A stretch of DNA of 64,000 bases from an uncultured Acidobacteriota bacterium (GTDB lineage: Bacteria > Actinomycetota > Acidimicrobiia > Spongiisociales > ZC4RG35), in NCBI GenBank assembly GCA_963810465.1, contig CAWENM010000003.1, positions 128,259 through 192,258 on the forward strand, read 5' to 3'. Each line of letters opens with the position of its first letter. Position 1 is the first letter of the stretch. Position numbers and translations under genes: made by a program. The notes under the pieces are model-generated. The model did no database searches, was not told the DNA's origin, and saw only the letters and a list, made by a program, of their open reading frames with translations. Below, one piece after another: positions 1 to 36,383 of this stretch.

Positions 1-1573
1 GAGTGCCGTCGTGGAAGGTGACACCTTCGCGCAACGCGCAGGTCCACACGACACCCTCGGCGTCAGGCACACACTCGGTGGCCAGCTTCGGCACGGCCTG
101 TCCTTCGAGGTCGTATCCGTACAGCCCTTCCTGCGTCTGCTGGCAGGCAGACAGTGACTCGCCATCGGTCTCATCAGGGCAGTAGAGCGAGATCGGCTCG
201 GCGTTCTGGACGAACACCAGATCGGCATCTCCCGGGTTCATGAGTGCGAACTGGGGCGCACCGAACGGCGGGGTAACCGCTCCCTCGAGAGTGGCGAGCC
301 CGGCATTGGCCGCGGCTCCCCAGGCGATCGGCACCATCGGCACATCCTCGACGAGCAGGTCGTTGATCTGCGCGTAGACGGGCTGCGCCTCAGCCGGGTC
401 GACGATCCCTGATCCTTCGATCACTGCGGCAGTGATGTCCGTGTTCATCACACCGAACTGGACGTTGATGCCACCGAAGTGATAGTCGAGGAAGTTGGTC
501 ACGTGCGGGTAGTCGGCGCCCCAGCCCAGTAGATGGATGCCCTCTACCGTGCCGGCGGCGGTCGCCTCGATGAACGCACCTGATTCCATGACCTCGATCG
601 TGGCGTTGATCCCCAGGTTCTCCGCCAACTGGGCGCGGATATCCTCGGCCACCGCCGTCGGCTCCGGGAGATAGACCCGGAACACGTCGCGGAGGGAGAT
701 CGTCGTGTCGAACCCATCGGCGAAGCCGGCCTCTGCAAGAAGCGCTCTCGCTGCCTCAGGGTCGAAGTCGGGGAACGATGCGCCTTCACAGGCGTTCTCC
801 AGGATGCACGGCGCGAAGTGGGTGGCCACCTCCGAGCCTTCCGGGTAGAAGGTGTCGATGATCCTCTGCCGGTCGATGCCCAGCGCGATCGCCTGACGAA
901 CCAATGGGTTGTCGAACGGCGGGAACTGGTTGTTGAACCCAACGTAGAACACGTTCGGGTTGTTATCGACGAGCAACTGGAGATTGGTGTCACCTTCGAT
1001 GCCGGCGTAGTCGCTCGCCGCCAGGTTGGTGATGAAGTCCGCGTTACCCGAGGTCAGCTCGGTGATCCGCCCGGTGCTGTCCTCACGCCAGCGGAAGACC
1101 AGCGTGTCGAACGCCGGAGCCTCGCCCCAGTAGTCGGGGTTCGCCTCGAAGACGATCTCGGACCCACGTGCCCAGCCCCCTTCAGGGAGCATGAACGGGC
1201 CTGTGCCCACCGGGTTCTCCAAGGGGGAACCGGCGGTCGCCTCGAGGTGCTCGGATGGCTGGATGGAGAACGGGACGAACGCAATCTTGACCAGGAATGC
1301 CGGGTCGGCCGCGCACAGGGTGAACACCACCTCGGACGCCGAAGTGGCCTCGATCTTGTTGATCTTGCCCCCGTAATCACAACCCCCTGAGTCGAGTGTG
1401 AGCAATTCTGACGGTGCCTCGGTGGTCGCGACCGAAGTGGTCGTCTCCCCGGCAGCCGATGTCGTCGTCTCACCACCCGCAGTGGTTGTCGACTCGTCGC
1501 CGCCCTCGCTGGCACAAGCGCCGGCGATGAGGGCGAGTACTGCGACGAGCGCCAACCAGCGCATTCGTTTCAT
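1..1573 (-). CDS. ABC transporter substrate-binding protein, family 5 (peptide/nickel/oligosaccharide type), lipoprotein; 3' end truncated by window edge
   Basis: My own minus-strand translation from ATG at 1573. N-terminus is MKRMRWLALVAVLALIAGACASEGG (lipobox). There are about 524 codons with no stop to position 1 and SBP_bac_5-like content throughout. It is not in the ORF track, presumably because it has no stop within the window. Confidence 0.8.
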   Translation of the reverse strand, partial: MKRMRWLALVAVLALIAGACASEGGDESTTTAGGETTTSAAGETTTSVATTEAPSELLTLDSGGCDYGGKINKIEATSASEVVFTLCAADPAFLVKIAFVPFSIQPSEHLEATAGSPLENPVGTGPFMLPEGGWARGSEIVFEANPDYWGEAPAFDTLVFRWREDSTGRITELTSGNADFITNLAASDYAGIEGDTNLQLLVDNNPNVFYVGFNNQFPPFDNPLVRQAIALGIDRQRIIDTFYPEGSEVATHFAPCILENACEGASFPDFDPEAARALLAEAGFADGFDTTISLRDVFRVYLPEPTAVAEDIRAQLAENLGINATIEVMESGAFIEATAAGTVEGIHLLGWGADYPHVTNFLDYHFGGINVQFGVMNTDITAAVIEGSGIVDPAEAQPVYAQINDLLVEDVPMVPIAWGAAANAGLATLEGAVTPPFGAPQFALMNPGDADLVFVQNAEPISLYCPDETDGESLSACQQTQEGLYGYDLEGQAVPKLATECVPDAEGVVWTCALREGVTFHDGT

Positions 1574-16125: not shown

Positions 16126-16539
16126 TTGGTCGACAGATTCAGCGCTTCGCTTGGCTTGCGCCTGCGTGCAGCCCGTCGTCAGCGGGGTTGGTCGTTGGGG
16201 GAGCTCGAGTCATACACAGGCGGTGAGTTCAAGGCATCCGTCGTCGGCGCATATGAGCGTGGGGAGCGCGCGCTGAGTGTTCAAAGGCTGGTGCGTCTGG
16301 CCGAGATCTACGCGGTGCCGCCGTCCGACCTCCTGCCAATGGGTTCGTCCGAACGTGGCGTCTTGATCGATCTCGATGTGGCCGCCACGTCGAAGGACGG
16401 TGACCTCATCGACCGGTACCTCGCCGCAATCCATTTCTTGCGCCGTGAGGGCAGGCCAGACGAGGTTCGTGACTCGGACAAGGCAGTGATTGCCTCATTG
16501 CTGGATTCGACGGTCGAAGTCGCCTCCGGGCTGGACTGA
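16126..16539 (+). CDS. XRE-family helix-turn-helix transcriptional regulator
   Basis: HTH_XRE motif LGLRLRAARRQRGWSLGELESYTG...LSVQRLVRLAEIYAVP. Start placed at an in-frame TTG/GTG after the rsmE stop, because the track start overlaps rsmE. Confidence 0.65.
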   Translation: MVDRFSASLGLRLRAARRQRGWSLGELESYTGGEFKASVVGAYERGERALSVQRLVRLAEIYAVPPSDLLPMGSSERGVLIDLDVAATSKDGDLIDRYLAAIHFLRREGRPDEVRDSDKAVIASLLDSTVEVASGLD

Positions 16540-16606
16540 ATTCTCGGAATCAGCACCTGGCGGCCTCTACAATGGTCGCGACGCCACAGAGAGGGCGTCG
16601 TCTCCC

Positions 16607-17587
16607 ATGCCCACCGAGCAATCCACTGACTCTATCGACTCGCGTTTACGCGTCCCCAGCCATCATTTGATGCTGGATCTCTTGGGCGAGGCCGATCGAC
16701 ACCTCCGCCAGGTCGAATCCCATTTCCCGGAGGTGCGATTCGTCGCGCGCGGGGACGAGTTGGCGCTGAAAGGCCCCGACACCGAGGTCGAACGAGCCCG
16801 AACCGTGCTGGAGGAGCTACTGATCCTCGTCCAGGAAGGCCATGCCCTCGACTCCGCAAGGGTCGACGAAGTGGTGAAAATGGTCATCGAGGACGTGCCC
16901 AGCCCTTCGGGGGTGCTCTCCGACGGGATTCCAGTCGGGCGGGGGCGCATGATCCGTCCCAAGACCCACGGCCAACAGAAGTACATGGAGGCCATCAGGG
17001 AGAACACCCTCACCTTCGGCATCGGGCCTGCCGGCACCGGAAAGACCTATCTGGCCATGGCCGCCGCGGTGGACAGCCTGGTCAGCGGGTCGGTGCGTCG
17101 GATCATCCTCACCCGACCTGCCGTGGAGGCGGGGGAGAGGCTCGGATTCCTGCCCGGAGATCTCGCCGCCAAGGTCGATCCTTACCTTCGCCCGCTGTAC
17201 GACGCGTTATGGGACATGCTCGGCCCCGAGGAGACGGCAGCGCTCGTCGAGAAGGGAACTATCGAGATAGCCCCACTCGCTTATATGAGAGGAAGGACTC
17301 TCAACGACGCCTGTGTCATCCTCGACGAAGCGCAGAACACGACGCCGGAGCAGATGAAGATGTTCCTGACCCGGCTCGGGTTCAACTCCAAGATGATCAT
17401 CACGGGTGACATGACCCAGACCGATCTCCCCGACAACCGAAGATCGGGTCTCAAGGTGGTGCGGGAGATCCTGAGCGACATCCCCGGTGTCTCCTTCGTC
17501 GAGTTGACGGCCCGGGACGTCGTCCGGCATCGCATAGTCGCCTCCATCGTCGAGGCCTACGCCCGGTTCGAGAGCAAGGTCAAGTGA
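16607..17587 (+). CDS. phoH: PhoH-like ATPase
   Basis: Walker A GIGPAGTGKTYLAMA, PhoH family core. Start at internal ATG (MPTEQSTD) downstream of the overlapping track start. Confidence 0.9.
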   Translation: MPTEQSTDSIDSRLRVPSHHLMLDLLGEADRHLRQVESHFPEVRFVARGDELALKGPDTEVERARTVLEELLILVQEGHALDSARVDEVVKMVIEDVPSPSGVLSDGIPVGRGRMIRPKTHGQQKYMEAIRENTLTFGIGPAGTGKTYLAMAAAVDSLVSGSVRRIILTRPAVEAGERLGFLPGDLAAKVDPYLRPLYDALWDMLGPEETAALVEKGTIEIAPLAYMRGRTLNDACVILDEAQNTTPEQMKMFLTRLGFNSKMIITGDMTQTDLPDNRRSGLKVVREILSDIPGVSFVELTARDVVRHRIVASIVEAYARFESKVK

Positions 17588-20100
17588 TGCCGCGGCCGAC
17601 GCTCGTCCGCCTCGCCACTTTTGTCGCCACCGTGGTGGCCGCCTGGGGCGTGCTCTCGTTGGGCGGGCCGAGCGGGAATCCGGAGCTGGTGCTTGGCGCT
17701 CCAGCAGCTCAGGACTACCGGGCGCAACGAACCGGCACGGTCGAGGACACGGTGGAAACCGATCGGCTCCGCCAGGAGGCCAGAAATTCAGTCCCTCCGG
17801 TGGAGCAGATCAACGAGCAGATCCAGAACACGGTCAACACGCAGGTAGAGGCGGTGTTCGACGACGTAGATAGCCTTGTTGTCGGCGATCCGGTGGAGAA
17901 TCCCGCTCCCGAGGCAGCGGGCGAGCCGACGACAACCACCGTCGCTTCCGACGCAACCGCAACCACCGAGTCCGTCGAGCCGGTCGTGATCTCCGGAATG
18001 GTCTTCATAGACGTTGGCGCCGACGGCACATTCGACCTGGAGGCAGAGGGATCTCGCCCTGACAGTGGCGCAGCGCGCATGACCGTGAATGTCGACGCCG
18101 GGGGAGAGGTTCAGCAGGTCATGACCGACGAGAACGGGTTTTGGTCGGCGCAGGTTTTGCCTGGTGTCGCCCGTGTCAGCATCGACCCAGAGGACCCGGA
18201 GATCCCGCGGGGGTACGTTTTCGGCTCGGGAAACTACGTGCAGGACGTCGACTGCCAACCCGGGGTCGCCTGCGAGGCGACGGCGATCCCGCTGCGGGTC
18301 AACCTGCGGGATATCGACGAGGTCATCGCTCAGGTGACAGCTCGCCACATCGTCGCCAGTGACGCCATCACCACCCTCGCCGCCACCGCCGGCGACGATG
18401 TGATCCGCACTGCGGTGGGCGAGGATCCCCACCTCCCCGTCATCCGGCAGGCCGCGGTCAACCGCCTGTTCCAGGAGTTCGGGCTCCTGATCAAGCCGGA
18501 CCAGCTTCCGACTGCACAACAACGTCTTCGCTCCAGCCCACCTGCGGTCTTCTACCTCGACGCCAACCCACCCGGTCAGGATCAGGCGGCAAGTGACGCC
18601 GCGGGCGAGGTAGTGGCCAGCTACATACAGGCCAACTATCTCGTCGACGAGGCCGCCACCACAGAGGCCCAGGACGAGGCCGCCGCCGCGGTTGAGCCCG
18701 TCGAAGTCGAGTTCAGCGCCGACACACTCATCGTCGCCGAGGGAGTGCCGCTGACCCAGCTTCACATCGACGCCATCGACGCCACCACTTCCTCGGCGTC
18801 GCAGGCGGAGGCGGACGTCGGGCTGCTCGCCGTGCTCGGCGTGATGGTCGGACTGCTCGGGCTCTATCTGTCTAGGTTCCGGACCGAGTTCTGGGCCAGG
18901 CCACGGATGGTTGCCCTGTTCGGCATCCTCATCGTTCTTGCGGCAGGTGCGGTCCGGGCCACCGTCATCTTCCAGCCTGAATCGAGTTGGTATGTGCTGC
19001 CGGCGGTGGCATTCGGATTCATGACGGCAGTGCTCTTCGACTCACGCATCGCAGTGCTGATGGCGCTGGCTGTCGGCGTCATTGCCGCGGTAGGCACCCA
19101 GGACACCGGTGTGGCCGTCTACGCCACGCTTGCCACTCTCGCCCCGATCCCGTTCGTGAGCTCGGTGACCAGTCGCGGCGGTTTCCGGACAGCCGTGGTG
19201 TTCTCGTCACTGTCGGCTGCCATCGCCGCCGGAGCCACCTCGTCGTTCTTCCACGTCGGGCCCAATGACGTCGTCTGGGAAGTGGTTGGGATCTCCATGG
19301 CCTGGGCATTCGGAGTGTCTGTCGTGGCCTCACTGATCGGCTTGGCCGCCCTCCAGTTCTTCGAGTCGGCTTTCGACATCACGACCAGCCTCAGCCTCCT
19401 CGACCTCACCGATCGGAATCACGAGGCGCTCCAACTGCTTCAAGAAAAGGCGTTCGGGACTTTCAACCACTCGCTGATGGTGGGGACGCTGGCCCATGCC
19501 GCAGCCCGGGCGATCGGCGCCAACCCCCTTTTGGCCCGGGCAATGGCCTACTACCACGACCTGGGCAAGACCGAGAACCCCTCGATGTTCATCGAGAACC
19601 AGTTCGGGATTCAGAACCCTCACGATTTCCTGACCCCCCTCGAGTCGGCCGAGGTGATCCGCAGACATGTGAGCGACGGCATCGTGTTGGCCCGTCAGTT
19701 CAAGATCCCGTCTGACGTCGCCACTGGAATCGTCAGTCATCACGGCGACGGGATCATGCGCTACTTCTACGAGAAGGCCAGGTCCCAGAACGGCGACCAC
19801 GTCGATCCCAACGATTTCCGCCACATCGGGCACAAGCCGAGGACTGCCGAGACCGCAATTGTGATGTTGTCCGACTCCCTGGAAGCGGCCTGCAGGGCCA
19901 ACTTCCAGACCGAGGAGCCGACGCCTGAAGCAATCGAGAAGGTGGTTGACCGCGTAATCGACGAGAAGTTGAACGACGGCCAGCTCTCCGAGTCGCCGCT
20001 CACCTTGGCCGAGATGACCCTGATCCGCTCTGCTTTCCTGGACTCGCTGGTCGGTCATTACCATCAGCGAATCGCGTATCCCAACTTCCCCGGAACCTGA
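17584..20100 (+). CDS. pgpH: 7TM receptor-HD phosphohydrolase (PgpH/YqfF family; predicted c-di-AMP phosphodiesterase class)
   Basis: 838 aa: signal/TM, long extracellular domain, 7TM block, C-terminal HD domain (AYYHDLGK, HHGDG). Conserved phoH-pgpH-ybeY order. Confidence 0.85.
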   Translation: MMPRPTLVRLATFVATVVAAWGVLSLGGPSGNPELVLGAPAAQDYRAQRTGTVEDTVETDRLRQEARNSVPPVEQINEQIQNTVNTQVEAVFDDVDSLVVGDPVENPAPEAAGEPTTTTVASDATATTESVEPVVISGMVFIDVGADGTFDLEAEGSRPDSGAARMTVNVDAGGEVQQVMTDENGFWSAQVLPGVARVSIDPEDPEIPRGYVFGSGNYVQDVDCQPGVACEATAIPLRVNLRDIDEVIAQVTARHIVASDAITTLAATAGDDVIRTAVGEDPHLPVIRQAAVNRLFQEFGLLIKPDQLPTAQQRLRSSPPAVFYLDANPPGQDQAASDAAGEVVASYIQANYLVDEAATTEAQDEAAAAVEPVEVEFSADTLIVAEGVPLTQLHIDAIDATTSSASQAEADVGLLAVLGVMVGLLGLYLSRFRTEFWARPRMVALFGILIVLAAGAVRATVIFQPESSWYVLPAVAFGFMTAVLFDSRIAVLMALAVGVIAAVGTQDTGVAVYATLATLAPIPFVSSVTSRGGFRTAVVFSSLSAAIAAGATSSFFHVGPNDVVWEVVGISMAWAFGVSVVASLIGLAALQFFESAFDITTSLSLLDLTDRNHEALQLLQEKAFGTFNHSLMVGTLAHAAARAIGANPLLARAMAYYHDLGKTENPSMFIENQFGIQNPHDFLTPLESAEVIRRHVSDGIVLARQFKIPSDVATGIVSHHGDGIMRYFYEKARSQNGDHVDPNDFRHIGHKPRTAETAIVMLSDSLEAACRANFQTEEPTPEAIEKVVDRVIDEKLNDGQLSESPLTLAEMTLIRSAFLDSLVGHYHQRIAYPNFPGT

Positions 20101-34140: not shown

Positions 34141-34335
34141 ATGACCCTGATGCACATGACCCTGGGAGCGTTGTCTTCCATCTTCGGAGCCCATCTGTCT
34201 TGGGCGATGACGGACTGGATCATCAGACGCAAGCGGGAAGGGCAAAGCATCCTCCTGCCGACCCTCCTCTCCGTAGCCGGCGTGGTCCTGATCGTCGTCA
34301 CCTTCGGTGTTGTCGTGTCATCGACCACGGTCTGA
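34141..34335 (+). CDS. small hydrophobic protein (two predicted TM helices)
   Basis: 64 aa MTLMHMTLGALSSIFGAHLSWAMTDWIIRRKREGQSILLPTLLSVAGVVLIVVTFGVVVSSTTV, in an AT-richer stretch. Confidence 0.35.
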   Translation: MTLMHMTLGALSSIFGAHLSWAMTDWIIRRKREGQSILLPTLLSVAGVVLIVVTFGVVVSSTTV

Positions 34336-34366
34336 ACAAAGTTCCGAAGAAAACCCCCGTTCTGGT

Positions 34367-34394
34367 TTGACGGCTGGATGAGTTTGGGTATAGT
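34367..34394 (+). promoter_or_regulatory. sigma-70-type promoter, module copy 1: TTGACG-N16-TATAGT
   Basis: Near-consensus -35/-10 with 16-nt spacing. Conserved in the second module 498 bp downstream. Confidence 0.55.
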
Positions 34395-34400
34395 TCCGAT

Positions 34401-34860
34401 CTGAAGCCCCGACGGGTCAGAAACTTCGGTTTCAGACTTGTTGGGGCTTCTTATATGCGGTCGTCGAGAAGAGGGACACCGGCGATGGCGGTCTCAGCCT
34501 TCGACGCTGATAGAGGGCTCGTCGCAAGGTCCGCCGATTTCGAACCCGACGCCGCGAACCCCTCACAAGGGGATCCAGGGTCGAAGGACCGACAGAACCA
34601 AAACGATCAGCCATCTCTCGCTCAAGCTACGAGTGGTAGGTGAACCGACTGCCTCGTCCCGGTTATCGGTGCGTGAATCGAACGCGAAACCGGGGACGAG
34701 TCCGGAGCCCTCCGAGCGTGGCGAGGACTCCGGTCACGTCCGTCTCAGCAAGGCGGGAGGAGTTGCCTTGGATCCTGAGCGTGGCGTCGTGACATGACAC
34801 CGAGGTTTCCGTCAGCCAGCAGGCAAGTGAAGATCGCCCGCGAAAGTTTTCGGAGTTCCT
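34401..34860 (+). ncRNA. candidate structured noncoding transcript / riboswitch-like leader A
   Basis: The first 48 nt form a conserved 8-bp stem enclosing a GAAAC-UUCG-GUUUC tetraloop hairpin, followed by about 400 nt with multiple strong stem-loops and no credible ORF. Motifs: GGGGAUCCA, GUGAAUCG, CCGGGGAC, GAGUCCGGAG. See findings. Confidence 0.3.
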
Positions 34861-34864
34861 CGGT

Positions 34865-34892
34865 TTGACGGATCCACGACATTGGGTATAGT
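34865..34892 (+). promoter_or_regulatory. sigma-70-type promoter, module copy 2: TTGACG-N16-TATAGT
   Basis: Same -35, spacer length and -10 as copy 1. Confidence 0.55.
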
Positions 34893-34898
34893 TCCGAT

Positions 34899-35210
34899 CT
34901 GAAGCCCCGACGGGTCGAAACTTCGGTTTCTGACTTGTTGGGGCTTCTTATTTGTCTCTCCCTCTCAAGTTCGAGAGGCTGGACTGCCGATAGGGGGAGA
35001 CGTTGGAGTGGAAGGGGGAGCCGAGAGGGCCCTCCAACATTGTCGCCCTCCGGGTGCCACCATCGCCCGGGGGTCGGCGCGCCCGACTGGCGCGATGAAG
35101 TCCAGCTAGGACCCGAATACCTGCCATCCTGTCCCATTCACGGCCTGGTGTTACGAGGCACATAGCTGTCTCGCCACACACCGCAACTAGGTCGACCAAC
35201 AACATCGAGC
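34899..35210 (+). ncRNA. candidate structured 5' leader B upstream of the M23 peptidase (riboswitch-like; possibly ydaO/c-di-AMP class)
   Basis: Same conserved 5' stem-loop as leader A (compensatory change in the inner stem), then about 260 nt of GC-rich structured leader with GGGGGAGCCGA and GGACCCGAAUACC motifs, ending at the ATG of the M23 peptidase. Confidence 0.3.
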
Positions 35211-36383
35211 ATGCACCGAACCCACCCAGCGAACAGAGAACGTCCCAAGCCCTGGCGCACCCTTGTCGTGGTCGCGACTCTGTCCGCAGTGTTGACGGCG
35301 AGTCTCGCCACCGGCACGGCCCTGGCGATATCTCGGGCGGAAGTAGACGAGGCATGCGCCGATTCCCAAGAGGCATACGACATCTATCGCTCCGCTCGTT
35401 CCGATTTCGAGGTGGCCGCGGTGGCGCTCGAGGAGGCAAACGCGGAGCTCGACGCTGCGGAATATCAGGAACAGCGAATCCGCAACGCCTACGAGGCACG
35501 CCAGGAGGAAAAGGCGGAGCTGTCGACCCGGGTCGAGTCACAGGCTGTCGAGCTCTACATGCAGGCCGCTTCCGGTCCCTCGATGGGGATGGTCAGCCTG
35601 TCCTCTCCCAGTGAAGCATTGACCGCCTACGAGTTTCTCCGGGCGAACGCCGACCAGAGCATGCAATCGGTGAACGACCTGGCCGCTATCTCCTCAGAGC
35701 TGGACCGACTTGGGGTCACGCTCGAGGCAGCTGTCGCAGAACTGACCACGGCGCGGGATGTGCAGCAACAGCAAACCGCTGACCAAGAGGCTGCGATGAC
35801 TTCTGCGTTGGGCGCATATGACGACCTGAGCGACAGATGCAAGGAACTGCAGGCCGCCTACGAAGCCGAACAGGCCCGTCTCCGAGCCGAGGCGGAAGAG
35901 AGAGCACGACAGCGTGCGGCAGCGGCGGCGTCCAGGGGCGGATCAGGCGATTCAGGAAGTGGTTCCACGGGCCCGATCATCGGCGGCATCATCTGCCCGT
36001 TCAGCCCGGGCCGTACGCATTTCAGCAACTCCTGGGGCGCCGGGCGTTCGGGTGGCAGGGCTCACAAAGGGACTGACATGATGGCTCCATTCGACGAGCC
36101 CATCTACGCCGTGGCCAACGGGACGATCAGCACCGGGAGCAGCGGACTCGGCGGCAAGACGATCTGGCTCTCGACTGGAGGGGTGGCCTTCTACTACGCC
36201 CATCTGAGCGGGTTCGCAGTGGGGGATGGCGCCTCGGTGAGTCAGGGTGACCTGATCGCATACAACGGCAACACCGGCAATGCGTCCGGCGGAGCCCCAC
36301 ACCTTCATTTCGAGATCCATCCGGGTGGACGGGGCTCGAGCGCGGTGAATCCCTACAACGCAGTGGCCTCGGTCTGCTTCTGA
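35211..36383 (+). CDS. M23 (LytM) family peptidoglycan metalloendopeptidase with N-terminal signal peptide and long coiled-coil
   Basis: Signal peptide, about 220 aa of coiled-coil, C-terminal M23 domain (HKGTDMMAP...HLHFEIH). Confidence 0.9.

Follow-up and report, generated by a model that had tools for sequence, protein, structure and literature searches.

Why should the 877 nucleotides (nt) that gene callers leave empty ahead of a cell-wall peptidase gene hold two near-consensus promoters, each running at once into the same stem-loop? The locus lies in a 64,000-nt stretch of DNA (hereafter the window: positions 128,259 to 192,258 of contig CAWENM010000003.1, GenBank assembly GCA_963810465.1), between a gene for a 64-amino-acid (aa) membrane protein and one for an M23 peptidase. 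The source contig is 451 kb long and belongs to an ENA metagenome assembly. An interpretation made from the letters alone (the sequence-only reading) had proposed a cyclic di-AMP (c-di-AMP) riboswitch of the ydaO class or a novel small RNA, with a 5' stabiliser hairpin as an alternative. The repeated unit is a real, conserved, low-copy, lineage-specific promoter-hairpin cassette of Acidimicrobiia metagenome-assembled genomes (MAGs). As to its function, it is quite possibly, if short of probably, a promoter fused to a 5'-terminal protective stem-loop.

The repeated module and its occurrence

The module is about 93 nt long and stands in two direct copies, A (34364-34457) and B (34862-34954), with a start-to-start spacing of 498; no repeat match like this pair arose in 100 shuffles of the window, and the tandem arrangement described by the sequence-only reading is borne out. 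Each copy consists, in order, of TTGACG-N16-TATAGT, 8 bases, a hairpin of 47-48 nt with a UUCG loop, and a 7-nt AU-rich tail (Table 1). Both promoters match the consensus at 10 of 12 positions, near-consensus as had been claimed, and a promoter scan of 3.3 kb returned three promoter-like sites where 0.5 were expected. The first base of hairpin A falls 8 nt past the -10 box, which would make it the predicted +1 or place it up to 2 nt downstream of +1. Correctly seen, too, was the exchange that distinguishes the two helices, a mismatch in A (an A/A 1x1 internal loop) for a one-base bulge in B. The fold itself had been misjudged: in place of an 8-bp stem enclosing a separate hairpin there is one continuous helix of 21-22 bp with three G.U pairs. 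Nor does the similarity continue beyond the module, as had been supposed: region A, between the modules, aligned with leader B and the start of the M23 gene gives a best local score of 21, equal to the shuffle mean of 21, which lends no support to a whole leader that was duplicated and then diverged. Repetition is demonstrable for the ~93-nt module alone.

Table 1. Features of the locus, in window coordinates
Feature	Position	Strand	Basis
Two-helix membrane protein gene (predicted), 64 aa	34141-34335	+	List of open reading frames; called on the source contig and in relatives L002-L004
Promoter A: -35 TTGACG (34367-34372), 16-nt spacer, -10 TATAGT (34389-34394)	34367-34394	+	Promoter scan
Hairpin A, 48 nt: 16 outer pairs, A/A 1x1 internal loop, 5 inner pairs, UUCG loop	34403-34450	+	Folding; covariance-model match, 74.6 bits
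AU-rich tail UUAUAUG, directly 3' of hairpin A	34451-34457	+	Conservation comparison
Region A, ~400 nt (403 nt), non-coding, between the modules	34458-34860	+	Alignment of 10 relatives
Long hairpin GGGGACGAGUCCGGAGCCCUC...GAGGACUCCGGUCACGUCC in region A	34692-34741	+	Helix 9 of the consensus fold
Block GUCUCAGCAAGGCGGGAGGAGUUGCCUUGGA	34742-34772	+	Invariant in the first 10 relatives; near-invariant with further variants
Near-invariant block GUGACAUGACACCGAGGUUUCCG, with tandem TGACA TGACA	34789-34811	+	Alignment of relatives
Promoter B: -35 TTGACG (34865-34870), 16-nt spacer, -10 TATAGT (34887-34892)	34865-34892	+	Promoter scan
Hairpin B, 47 nt: helix as in A, but one bulged U where A has its A/A internal loop	34901-34947	+	Folding; covariance-model match, 77.5 bits
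AU-rich tail UUAUUUG, 3' of hairpin B	34948-34954	+	Conservation comparison
Leader B, 256-nt 5' untranslated leader of M23	34955-35210	+	Alignment of 10 relatives, long invariant runs
M23 peptidase gene: signal peptide, coiled-coil N-terminal half, M23 domain at residues 284-374	35211-36383	+	Pfam PF01551, E 5.9e-20

How widely does the module occur? A pattern scan of one genome per species found 25 loci, 23 of them in Acidimicrobiia-type MAGs from about 20 species-representative genomes, with one to three matches in each; a metagenome scan supplied further hairpin variants, and among the matches listed from the two scans there are 62 distinct instances. A covariance model of the hairpin, run on 252 kb of related DNA, added no copies, and a phage origin was rejected on the absence of the module from 2.9 million viral contigs. 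Relatives with 87-96% identical M23 proteins have the same two-module layout. A relative at 78% identity has one module in a divergent intergenic region of 330 nt, the arrangement seen upstream of M23 in L005, L009 and L023. At 70% and 63% identity, M23 orthologues lack the module and the window's leaders alike; the module is therefore not ancestral to the gene. The 577 M23 homologues are named Acidimicrobiia wherever the source gives a name.

The instances fall into several contexts: class 1, upstream of M23, as a single or double module; class 2, 70-100 nt upstream of a DUF1761-DUF1905 operon; class 3a, facing a convergent GlnD-like gene of ~777 aa, whose stop codon lies inside the hairpin tail; class 3b, facing a convergent VanY/M15-like gene; and at least two further convergent contexts. 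“GlnD-like” and “VanY/M15-like” are what we take these genes to be from their translated sequences, and are not Pfam assignments. Class 1 and class 2 copies coexist in one MAG (L009 with L019, L023 with L011). In most of these contexts the module lies between two convergent genes or follows closely on a tRNA or some other gene.

The distance from promoter to hairpin hardly varies: in 61 of the 62 distinct instances the -10 box ends 7-8 nt ahead of the first hairpin base. A TAnnnT hexamer ends exactly 7 or 8 nt before the first hairpin G in 55, TATAAA does so at 7 nt in six more, and one instance has no promoter. Across relatives the hexamers are constant while the 16-17-nt spacer between them diverges, the signature of a real promoter, and the fixed distance from -10 box to stem puts the predicted start at the first paired G or 1-2 nt before it.

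The hairpin appears to be what selection has held. Hairpin A has a folding free energy (dG) of -35.2 kcal/mol (z -7.6) and hairpin B one of -34.7 kcal/mol (z -7.9), against -25.7 kcal/mol for the minus strand of hairpin A. All 22 of 22 hairpin variants share one helix, with a mean dG of -32.5 kcal/mol on the plus strand and -23.7 kcal/mol on the minus strand; the plus strand is better by ~9 kcal/mol because of 2-4 conserved G.U pairs (three in the window copies). Changes within the helix tend to preserve it: G-C has become C-G in five sequences and A-U in one, a G.U pair has flipped to U.G in two variants, 97% of cells are paired, and none of 500 shuffles reached the observed covariation. The orthologue of hairpin B in L002 carries a compensatory GAAACCCC/GGGGUUUC, with a G.U intermediate in the sister genome L026. 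Within each context class identity is 93-100% in the hairpin (partly by ascertainment, roughly half of its positions having been set in the search patterns) and 88-100% in the 7-nt tail, which lay outside every search pattern; it is 65-88% in the promoter region and 40-70% in the 60 nt past the tail. The best explanation is that the hairpin is the selected part, and that it acts as RNA on the strand transcribed from the promoter.

Some observations on the surroundings of these copies may be recorded here. Two copies, in different context classes, follow a tRNA gene that has their own orientation (L019:5890-5963, minus strand; L027:2311-2384, plus strand): ~70 nt separate the end of the tRNA from the hairpin, the module promoter occupies this gap, and the tRNA has no other hairpin behind it. 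The module-bearing Microflora Danica MAGs (L006, L008, L009, L011, L015 and others) are titled “uncultured Acidobacteriota”; their M23 proteins and their sister MAGs are named Acidimicrobiia, and the titles look mislabelled at phylum level. In the window, the gene for the 64-aa membrane protein, for which Pfam gives no match, ends 31 nt upstream of the -35 box of module A, and the stretch between has no hairpin of its own.

What the hairpin may do

Suppose that a housekeeping-type (sigma-70/sigma-A-like) promoter starts the transcript on the first nucleotide of the 46-48-nt hairpin or no more than two bases from it. A hairpin without unpaired 5' nucleotides would block decay that depends on the 5' end (pyrophosphate removal, RNase J, RNase E), and the RNA that it heads would be long-lived and abundant. 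Promoter B and hairpin B would head an mRNA made up of the 256-nt leader and M23, and promoter A and hairpin A a non-coding RNA of ~400 nt (region A). In related genomes the same cassette would be reused at the head of the DUF1761-DUF1905 operon and of short or antisense transcripts facing the GlnD-like and VanY-like genes. No terminator was found in region A ahead of promoter B, so that its RNA would probably read into module B, and read-through from promoter A may give a second, longer M23 transcript. We infer the transcription start site, the stabilising effect and the read-through into M23 purely by analogy and geometry.

The analogy is with DrrS of M. tuberculosis, whose transcription starts on the first base of a 5' stem-loop, a structure that confers extreme stability; at least two added unpaired 5' nucleotides destabilise that RNA, and the element raises the expression of a heterologous gene (PMC5360333). 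Such a precedent would explain why the distance from -10 box to hairpin is so tightly held. One of the things that a stabiliser calls for, a stable structure on the transcribed strand kept by selection, was found here (dG about -33 to -35 kcal/mol, z about -7.6, with covariation), and the stabiliser alternative of the sequence-only reading is supported by the fixed spacing of 7-8 nt in 61/62 instances, by the structure on the promoter strand and by the compensatory changes.

Several observations nevertheless weigh against a protective stem-loop. A stabiliser needs structure, not sequence, and leaves the near-invariant hairpin sequence unexplained: four class-3a genomes agree at 46/46 hairpin positions, against an identity of only 46-66% in the flanks, and the G.U pairs are themselves conserved. 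The share of ascertainment in the hairpin's conservation belongs on the same side, as does the 7-nt AU-rich tail, conserved in every class and not predicted by the model. Finally, at least four contexts have no co-directional gene, the convergent gene ending 2-80 nt past the hairpin; a short or antisense RNA is all that would be stabilised in such places.

Could the hairpin instead be a promoter-proximal intrinsic terminator? This we consider unlikely, though not negligibly so. The default product would be a hairpin RNA of ~55-60 nt, the module would be a tiny RNA gene or a leaky or regulated attenuator, and M23 and DUF1761 would be expressed by read-through. The GAAG...CUUC flanks, the GC-rich stem and the UUAUAUG, ACUAAUU or UCUAAUU after it have the makings of a terminator, in which the tail would find a place, being 88-100% conserved though selected by no search pattern. 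The outer stem and the tail, GGGAAGCCCCG...CGGGGCUUCUCUCAU (design GAAGCCCCG...CGGGGCUUCUCU), recur in these genomes in an intergenic hairpin that is evidently an ordinary one, and GAAGCCCC...GGGGCUUC hairpins with a U-run are plain terminators in many unrelated metagenome contigs. A self-contained unit would fit the convergent and post-tRNA contexts, a promoter firing into a convergent gene being otherwise odd, and strong sequence conservation suits a functional RNA product, as a tiny RNA would be. The U-tract, however, is poor: neither copy was called by a scan for at least 5 T in 8, tails of classes 2 and 3 (ACUAAUU) have only three U, and canonical terminators with a U6 run do occur in the same genome (window ~45481, minus strand). 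A terminator also has no need of a start exactly at the base of the stem. A sliding-window hairpin survey for what a “typical terminator” looks like was uninformative: in DNA as GC-rich as this, 60 nt taken almost anywhere fold below -27 kcal/mol.

A further difficulty for termination concerns the genes downstream. No TAnnnT hexamer occurs in region A (403 nt), leader B (256 nt), the leaders of the DUF1761 operons or the leader of the single-module relative, which leaves the module promoters as the only sigma-A-type candidates, so that transcription of M23 and DUF1761 must cross the hairpin. With no other -10-like element for 190-260 nt ahead of either, efficient termination would silence both. 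The hexamer is also missing from the homologous leaders of nine relatives. In the 659 nt of region A plus leader B we estimate that ~4-5 would arise from base composition alone; -10-like sequences may be selected against in this stretch.

Two other hairpin families were also met. A shorter related hairpin, GGGAAGCCCCGAGGGCGGAGACGUCAGCGGGGCUUCUCUCAU, with a small hairpin before it, lies between FAD-oxidoreductase-like and universal-stress-protein-like genes, ~2 kb from class-2 modules (L010:6668-6714, L019:3797-3843, L030:7550-7596, L021:5082-5128, L011:1230-1276, L018:3280-3326), and is probably an ordinary terminator of similar design. About half of the listed metagenome rows belong to an unrelated, highly conserved family, largely from human-gut assemblies: GAAGCCCCCUUAUCCUGCUCCUUCGGAGCUGCGGAUAAGGGGGCUUC (L033-L152, e.g. 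L034:5493-5539), which is preceded in more than 50 contigs by a conserved 45-nt flank, UCACCGGGACCCGAUGGGUUUCCCUCUGAAUGCGUCCUCGCACUU, and may form the 3' terminus of some structured RNA that a common gut bacterium makes.

Another possibility, to which we give little weight, is that hairpin and tail together form a sequence-specific site for a trans-acting factor (an RNA-binding regulator, an RNase III-type enzyme or an antiterminator), the transcripts making up a small co-regulated set; this would be compatible with either a stabiliser or a terminator mechanism. It would account for the conservation of sequence, beyond pairing, across the 23 Acidimicrobiia-type loci and across paralogous loci, including an apical AAC-UUCG-GUU that is invariant even where the pattern fixed TTCGG only, and conserved wobble pairs. 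At ~22 bp the helix is about as long as classical substrates of RNase III, and two associated genes encode peptidoglycan hydrolases, M23 in sense and the VanY/M15-like protein in antisense. But none of the neighbourhoods examined offers a candidate binding protein linked to the module, one to three copies per genome, with the classes mostly in different clades, would make for a thin regulon, and the conserved G.U pairs could merely prevent a perfect 46-bp DNA palindrome.

The palindrome of the hairpin might also be read as DNA, an operator past the start site for a dimeric repressor, with LexA as the candidate (many variants have a GAAC-N4-GTTC apex). We find this scarcely credible. Most hairpin variants do contain GAACTTCGGTTC, and class-3b modules lie a few hundred bases from dnaE2, which has true upstream SOS boxes, CGAACATATGTTCG. 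The window copies, however, read AAAC...GUUU (apex AAAC-TTCG-GTTT), other variants have GUUG or GUUA, and the central TTCG is unlike the real SOS boxes nearby. The three G.U pairs make the DNA palindrome imperfect and favour one strand by ~9 kcal/mol, and the changes that are seen keep RNA pairing, not a fixed box. With one mismatch allowed to the SOS box CGAACNNNNGTTCG, neither window hairpin matches; the sole match in the window (211-224) is no more than chance would give.

Two details of these sites may be added. The apex GAAC-TTCG-GTTC of L005, L007, L010, L014 and others, which the two copies of the window lack, is the core of the Gram-positive LexA (Cheo) box. The SOS boxes CGAACATATGTTCG upstream of dnaE2 overlap a TATAGT -10 box (L062:2882-2893, L092:315-326, L014:6389-6400).

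The conserved leaders and the riboswitch question

What, then, do the promoters transcribe? Region A and leader B are conserved and non-coding, and probably structured. Neither has a 3-base periodicity (p=0.93 and p=0.90), and their consensus folds, at -72 and -51, lie far below those of column shuffles (-45+/-4.6 and -28+/-4). In region A 92.8% of cells are paired, and 19 cells have changes on both sides of a pair against 9.8 in shuffles, a modest covariation; leader B varies too little for a covariation test. The downstream gene is an M23 peptidase, as had been recognised, and in the single-module relatives L005 and L023 its leader B is replaced by an unrelated, shorter one.

It is tempting to see a riboswitch in such leaders, of the ydaO class or new, sensing a ligand in leader B and/or region A and controlling M23. 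Both are conserved without coding signal, their folds far surpass those of column-shuffled alignments, some changes in region A are compensatory, and cell-wall hydrolase genes are typical ydaO targets in Actinobacteria. We nevertheless consider a riboswitch very unlikely. Rfam (4227 families) was searched with the whole window at gathering thresholds, which gave a tRNA and nothing else, and with 34250-35300 at E<=10 and permissive filters, where the best match had E=0.6 and neither RF00379 nor any other riboswitch family appeared on the plus strand. That best match is a chance likeness of the hairpin to the terminator stem of the phage P22 sar RNA; the weak sar, Guanidine-III and microRNA matches (E 0.6 or worse) are artefacts of hairpin shape. 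In 15 related loci Rfam again gives tRNAs only. With no covariance-model match in the window or in those loci, membership of the ydaO/c-di-AMP class (RF00379) is refuted, and the “ydaO-like words” picked out in the sequence-only reading have no covariance-model support. RF00379 is expected in 5' leaders of cell-wall hydrolase, transporter or osmoprotection genes, and the leader does precede an M23 peptidase gene, but context alone does not define the family. No terminator/antiterminator pair or clear switch that would sequester a Shine-Dalgarno sequence was found. The unrelated leaders of L005 and L023, and the M23 orthologues at 70% and 63% identity that lack both module and leaders, tell against a riboswitch too, as does the invariance of leader B, too great for covariation to be tested.

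The PgpH-type c-di-AMP phosphodiesterase that had been pointed out at 17584-20100 is real as to its domain architecture. This PgpH-type (7TM-HD) gene lies directly downstream of a PhoH-like gene (the two spanning window 16490-20100), ~14 kb from the M23 leader, and its presence in the window is best taken as coincidence, no link to the leader being seen. Removing a false riboswitch call leaves two probable conserved non-coding RNAs, region A and leader B, outside any described family.

For region A, an independently expressed structured RNA from promoter A is plausible, much as the sequence-only reading had suggested with its small RNA. The promoter, the conservation and the non-coding signal expected of a small-RNA gene are present; hairpin B would have to be the terminator. 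Its long hairpin (Table 1) has changed A-U to G-C at one pair in three sequences, and is lost in the natural deletion variant L117. In this variant and in L079 the middle ~190-270 nt of region A are missing; both keep the first ~95-130 nt and a 3' block with CAGCAAGGCGGGAGGAGUUGCCUUGG and GUGACAUGACACC, and in both the GUCUCAGCAAGGCGGGAGGAGUUGCCUUGGA block is kept with a few substitutions. Within this block a small hairpin, CAAGGC/GCCUUG (34749-34771), carries a Shine-Dalgarno-like GGGAGGAG (34755-34762) in its loop, with no usable start codon after it; by sequence only, it resembles the stand-alone Shine-Dalgarno (STAB-SD) stabiliser element.

Do these regions nonetheless encode protein? The claim that no credible open reading frame (ORF) follows the modules stands for the plus strand, where no ORF is conserved, 1-nt insertions and deletions occur among relatives and 3-base periodicity is lacking. 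An ATG frame in the GUGACAUGACACCGAGGUUUCCG block (MTPRFP...) was rejected as a peptide, being broken in L006 and L020. The minus strand has an arginine-rich ORF of 60 codons (34432-34614; MADRFG...RRRVRNRRTLRRALYQRRRLRPPSP...), open in 10/10 double-module relatives; its 9- and 21-nt insertions and deletions are in frame, and its ratio of nonsynonymous to synonymous polymorphism (pN/pS) is 0.57, against 0.9-1.25 in other frames. Its codon-position bias is not significant, Pfam gives no match, no homologue appeared among 5.8 billion proteins, gene callers never call it, and L079 and L117 have lost its start. We judge that it probably does not represent a gene.

Leader B contains an invariant CGAUGAAGUCCAGCUAG at 35093-35109. 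Within it ATGAAGTCCAGCTAG (M-K-S-S-stop, window 35095-35109) and the two bases before it are almost invariant across 10 relatives; lacking a consistent Shine-Dalgarno sequence, this is more likely an RNA motif than a mini-ORF.

The sequence constraint on the hairpin and the conservation of the leaders could also be combined in one proposal, which we hold to be possible but rather doubtful: that hairpin and tail are an undescribed sequence-specific RNA element of Acidimicrobiia, either a trans-acting RNA of ~55 nt or the docking site of an RNA-binding or antitermination factor that sets a few promoters, two peptidoglycan hydrolase loci among them, and that leader B/region A is a new ligand- or protein-responsive RNA for a division-type M23 hydrolase. 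Were one of the rival explanations to hold, this little-studied class, most of whose members are uncultured, would have yielded a new tiny RNA or a new RNA element recognised by a protein.

Comparison with known systems

With ydaO-yuaA (RF00379) the locus shares only its genomic context, the 5' region of an actinobacterial cell-wall hydrolase gene; the architecture of the module differs, and no covariance-model match was obtained at any threshold tried. The likeness to Rho-independent terminators and attenuators is closer: a GC-rich hairpin with A-rich 5' and U-rich 3' flanks, resembling the terminator hairpins of the same genomes. Unlike attenuators, the hairpin starts at the predicted +1, which leaves no room for a competing upstream structure; its U-tract is weak, and the genes downstream seem to depend on read-through.

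Repetitive extragenic palindromes (REP/REPIN) and miniature inverted-repeat transposable elements (MITE; the promoter-carrying Correia elements, for example) are likewise imperfect palindromic intergenic hairpins, often between convergent genes and associated with promoters. Such repeats are dispersed in tens to hundreds of copies per genome, in both orientations or with terminal inverted repeats. The module differs in its one to three copies per genome, its single orientation at a fixed distance from a promoter, and the conservation of orthologous loci; no terminal inverted repeats, target duplications or RAYT (REP-associated tyrosine transposase) genes were seen. A repeat of the REP/REPIN/MITE kind was rejected on these grounds, the copies being too few (none extra in the 252 kb) and the promoter coupling fixed.

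Putative mobile promoters, or promoter reuse (Matus-Garcia, Nijveen and van Passel 2012; PMC3488235, PMC3575422), offer another parallel: a closely similar promoter segment of ~95-125 nt upstream of non-homologous genes, also within one genome. The module does stand before both M23 and DUF1761-DUF1905 within single MAGs, and at least four other contexts contain it. In contrast to mobile promoters, however, it is the transcribed hairpin and not the promoter that is most conserved, and the copy number is very low. The copies are also old and vertically inherited rather than recently mobilised, orthologous loci being kept across species, with no transposase or terminal repeats.

It is to 5'-terminal stabilising stem-loops that the module, read as a promoter fused to a protective hairpin, comes nearest in design. 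The 5' hairpin of E. coli ompA and the B. subtilis aprE and ermC leaders are elements of this kind. As in DrrS, a stable stem-loop would begin with a first paired base that is, or almost is, the first transcribed nucleotide (predicted here). The elements of DrrS, ompA, aprE and ermC are features of single genes without a conserved sequence, and the effect on stability, inferred for the module, has been measured for DrrS; in the module a sequence of ~46 nt, a 7-nt tail and a promoter are conserved together across many species and at several loci, in tandem in the window. If the reading is right, this would be a natural, conserved expression cassette that joins a strong promoter to a protective 5' hairpin, reused by one bacterial lineage at several loci and tandem-duplicated before a cell-wall hydrolase: a natural counterpart of the engineered 5' hairpins of synthetic biology, which could serve as a ready part for high-GC actinobacteria.

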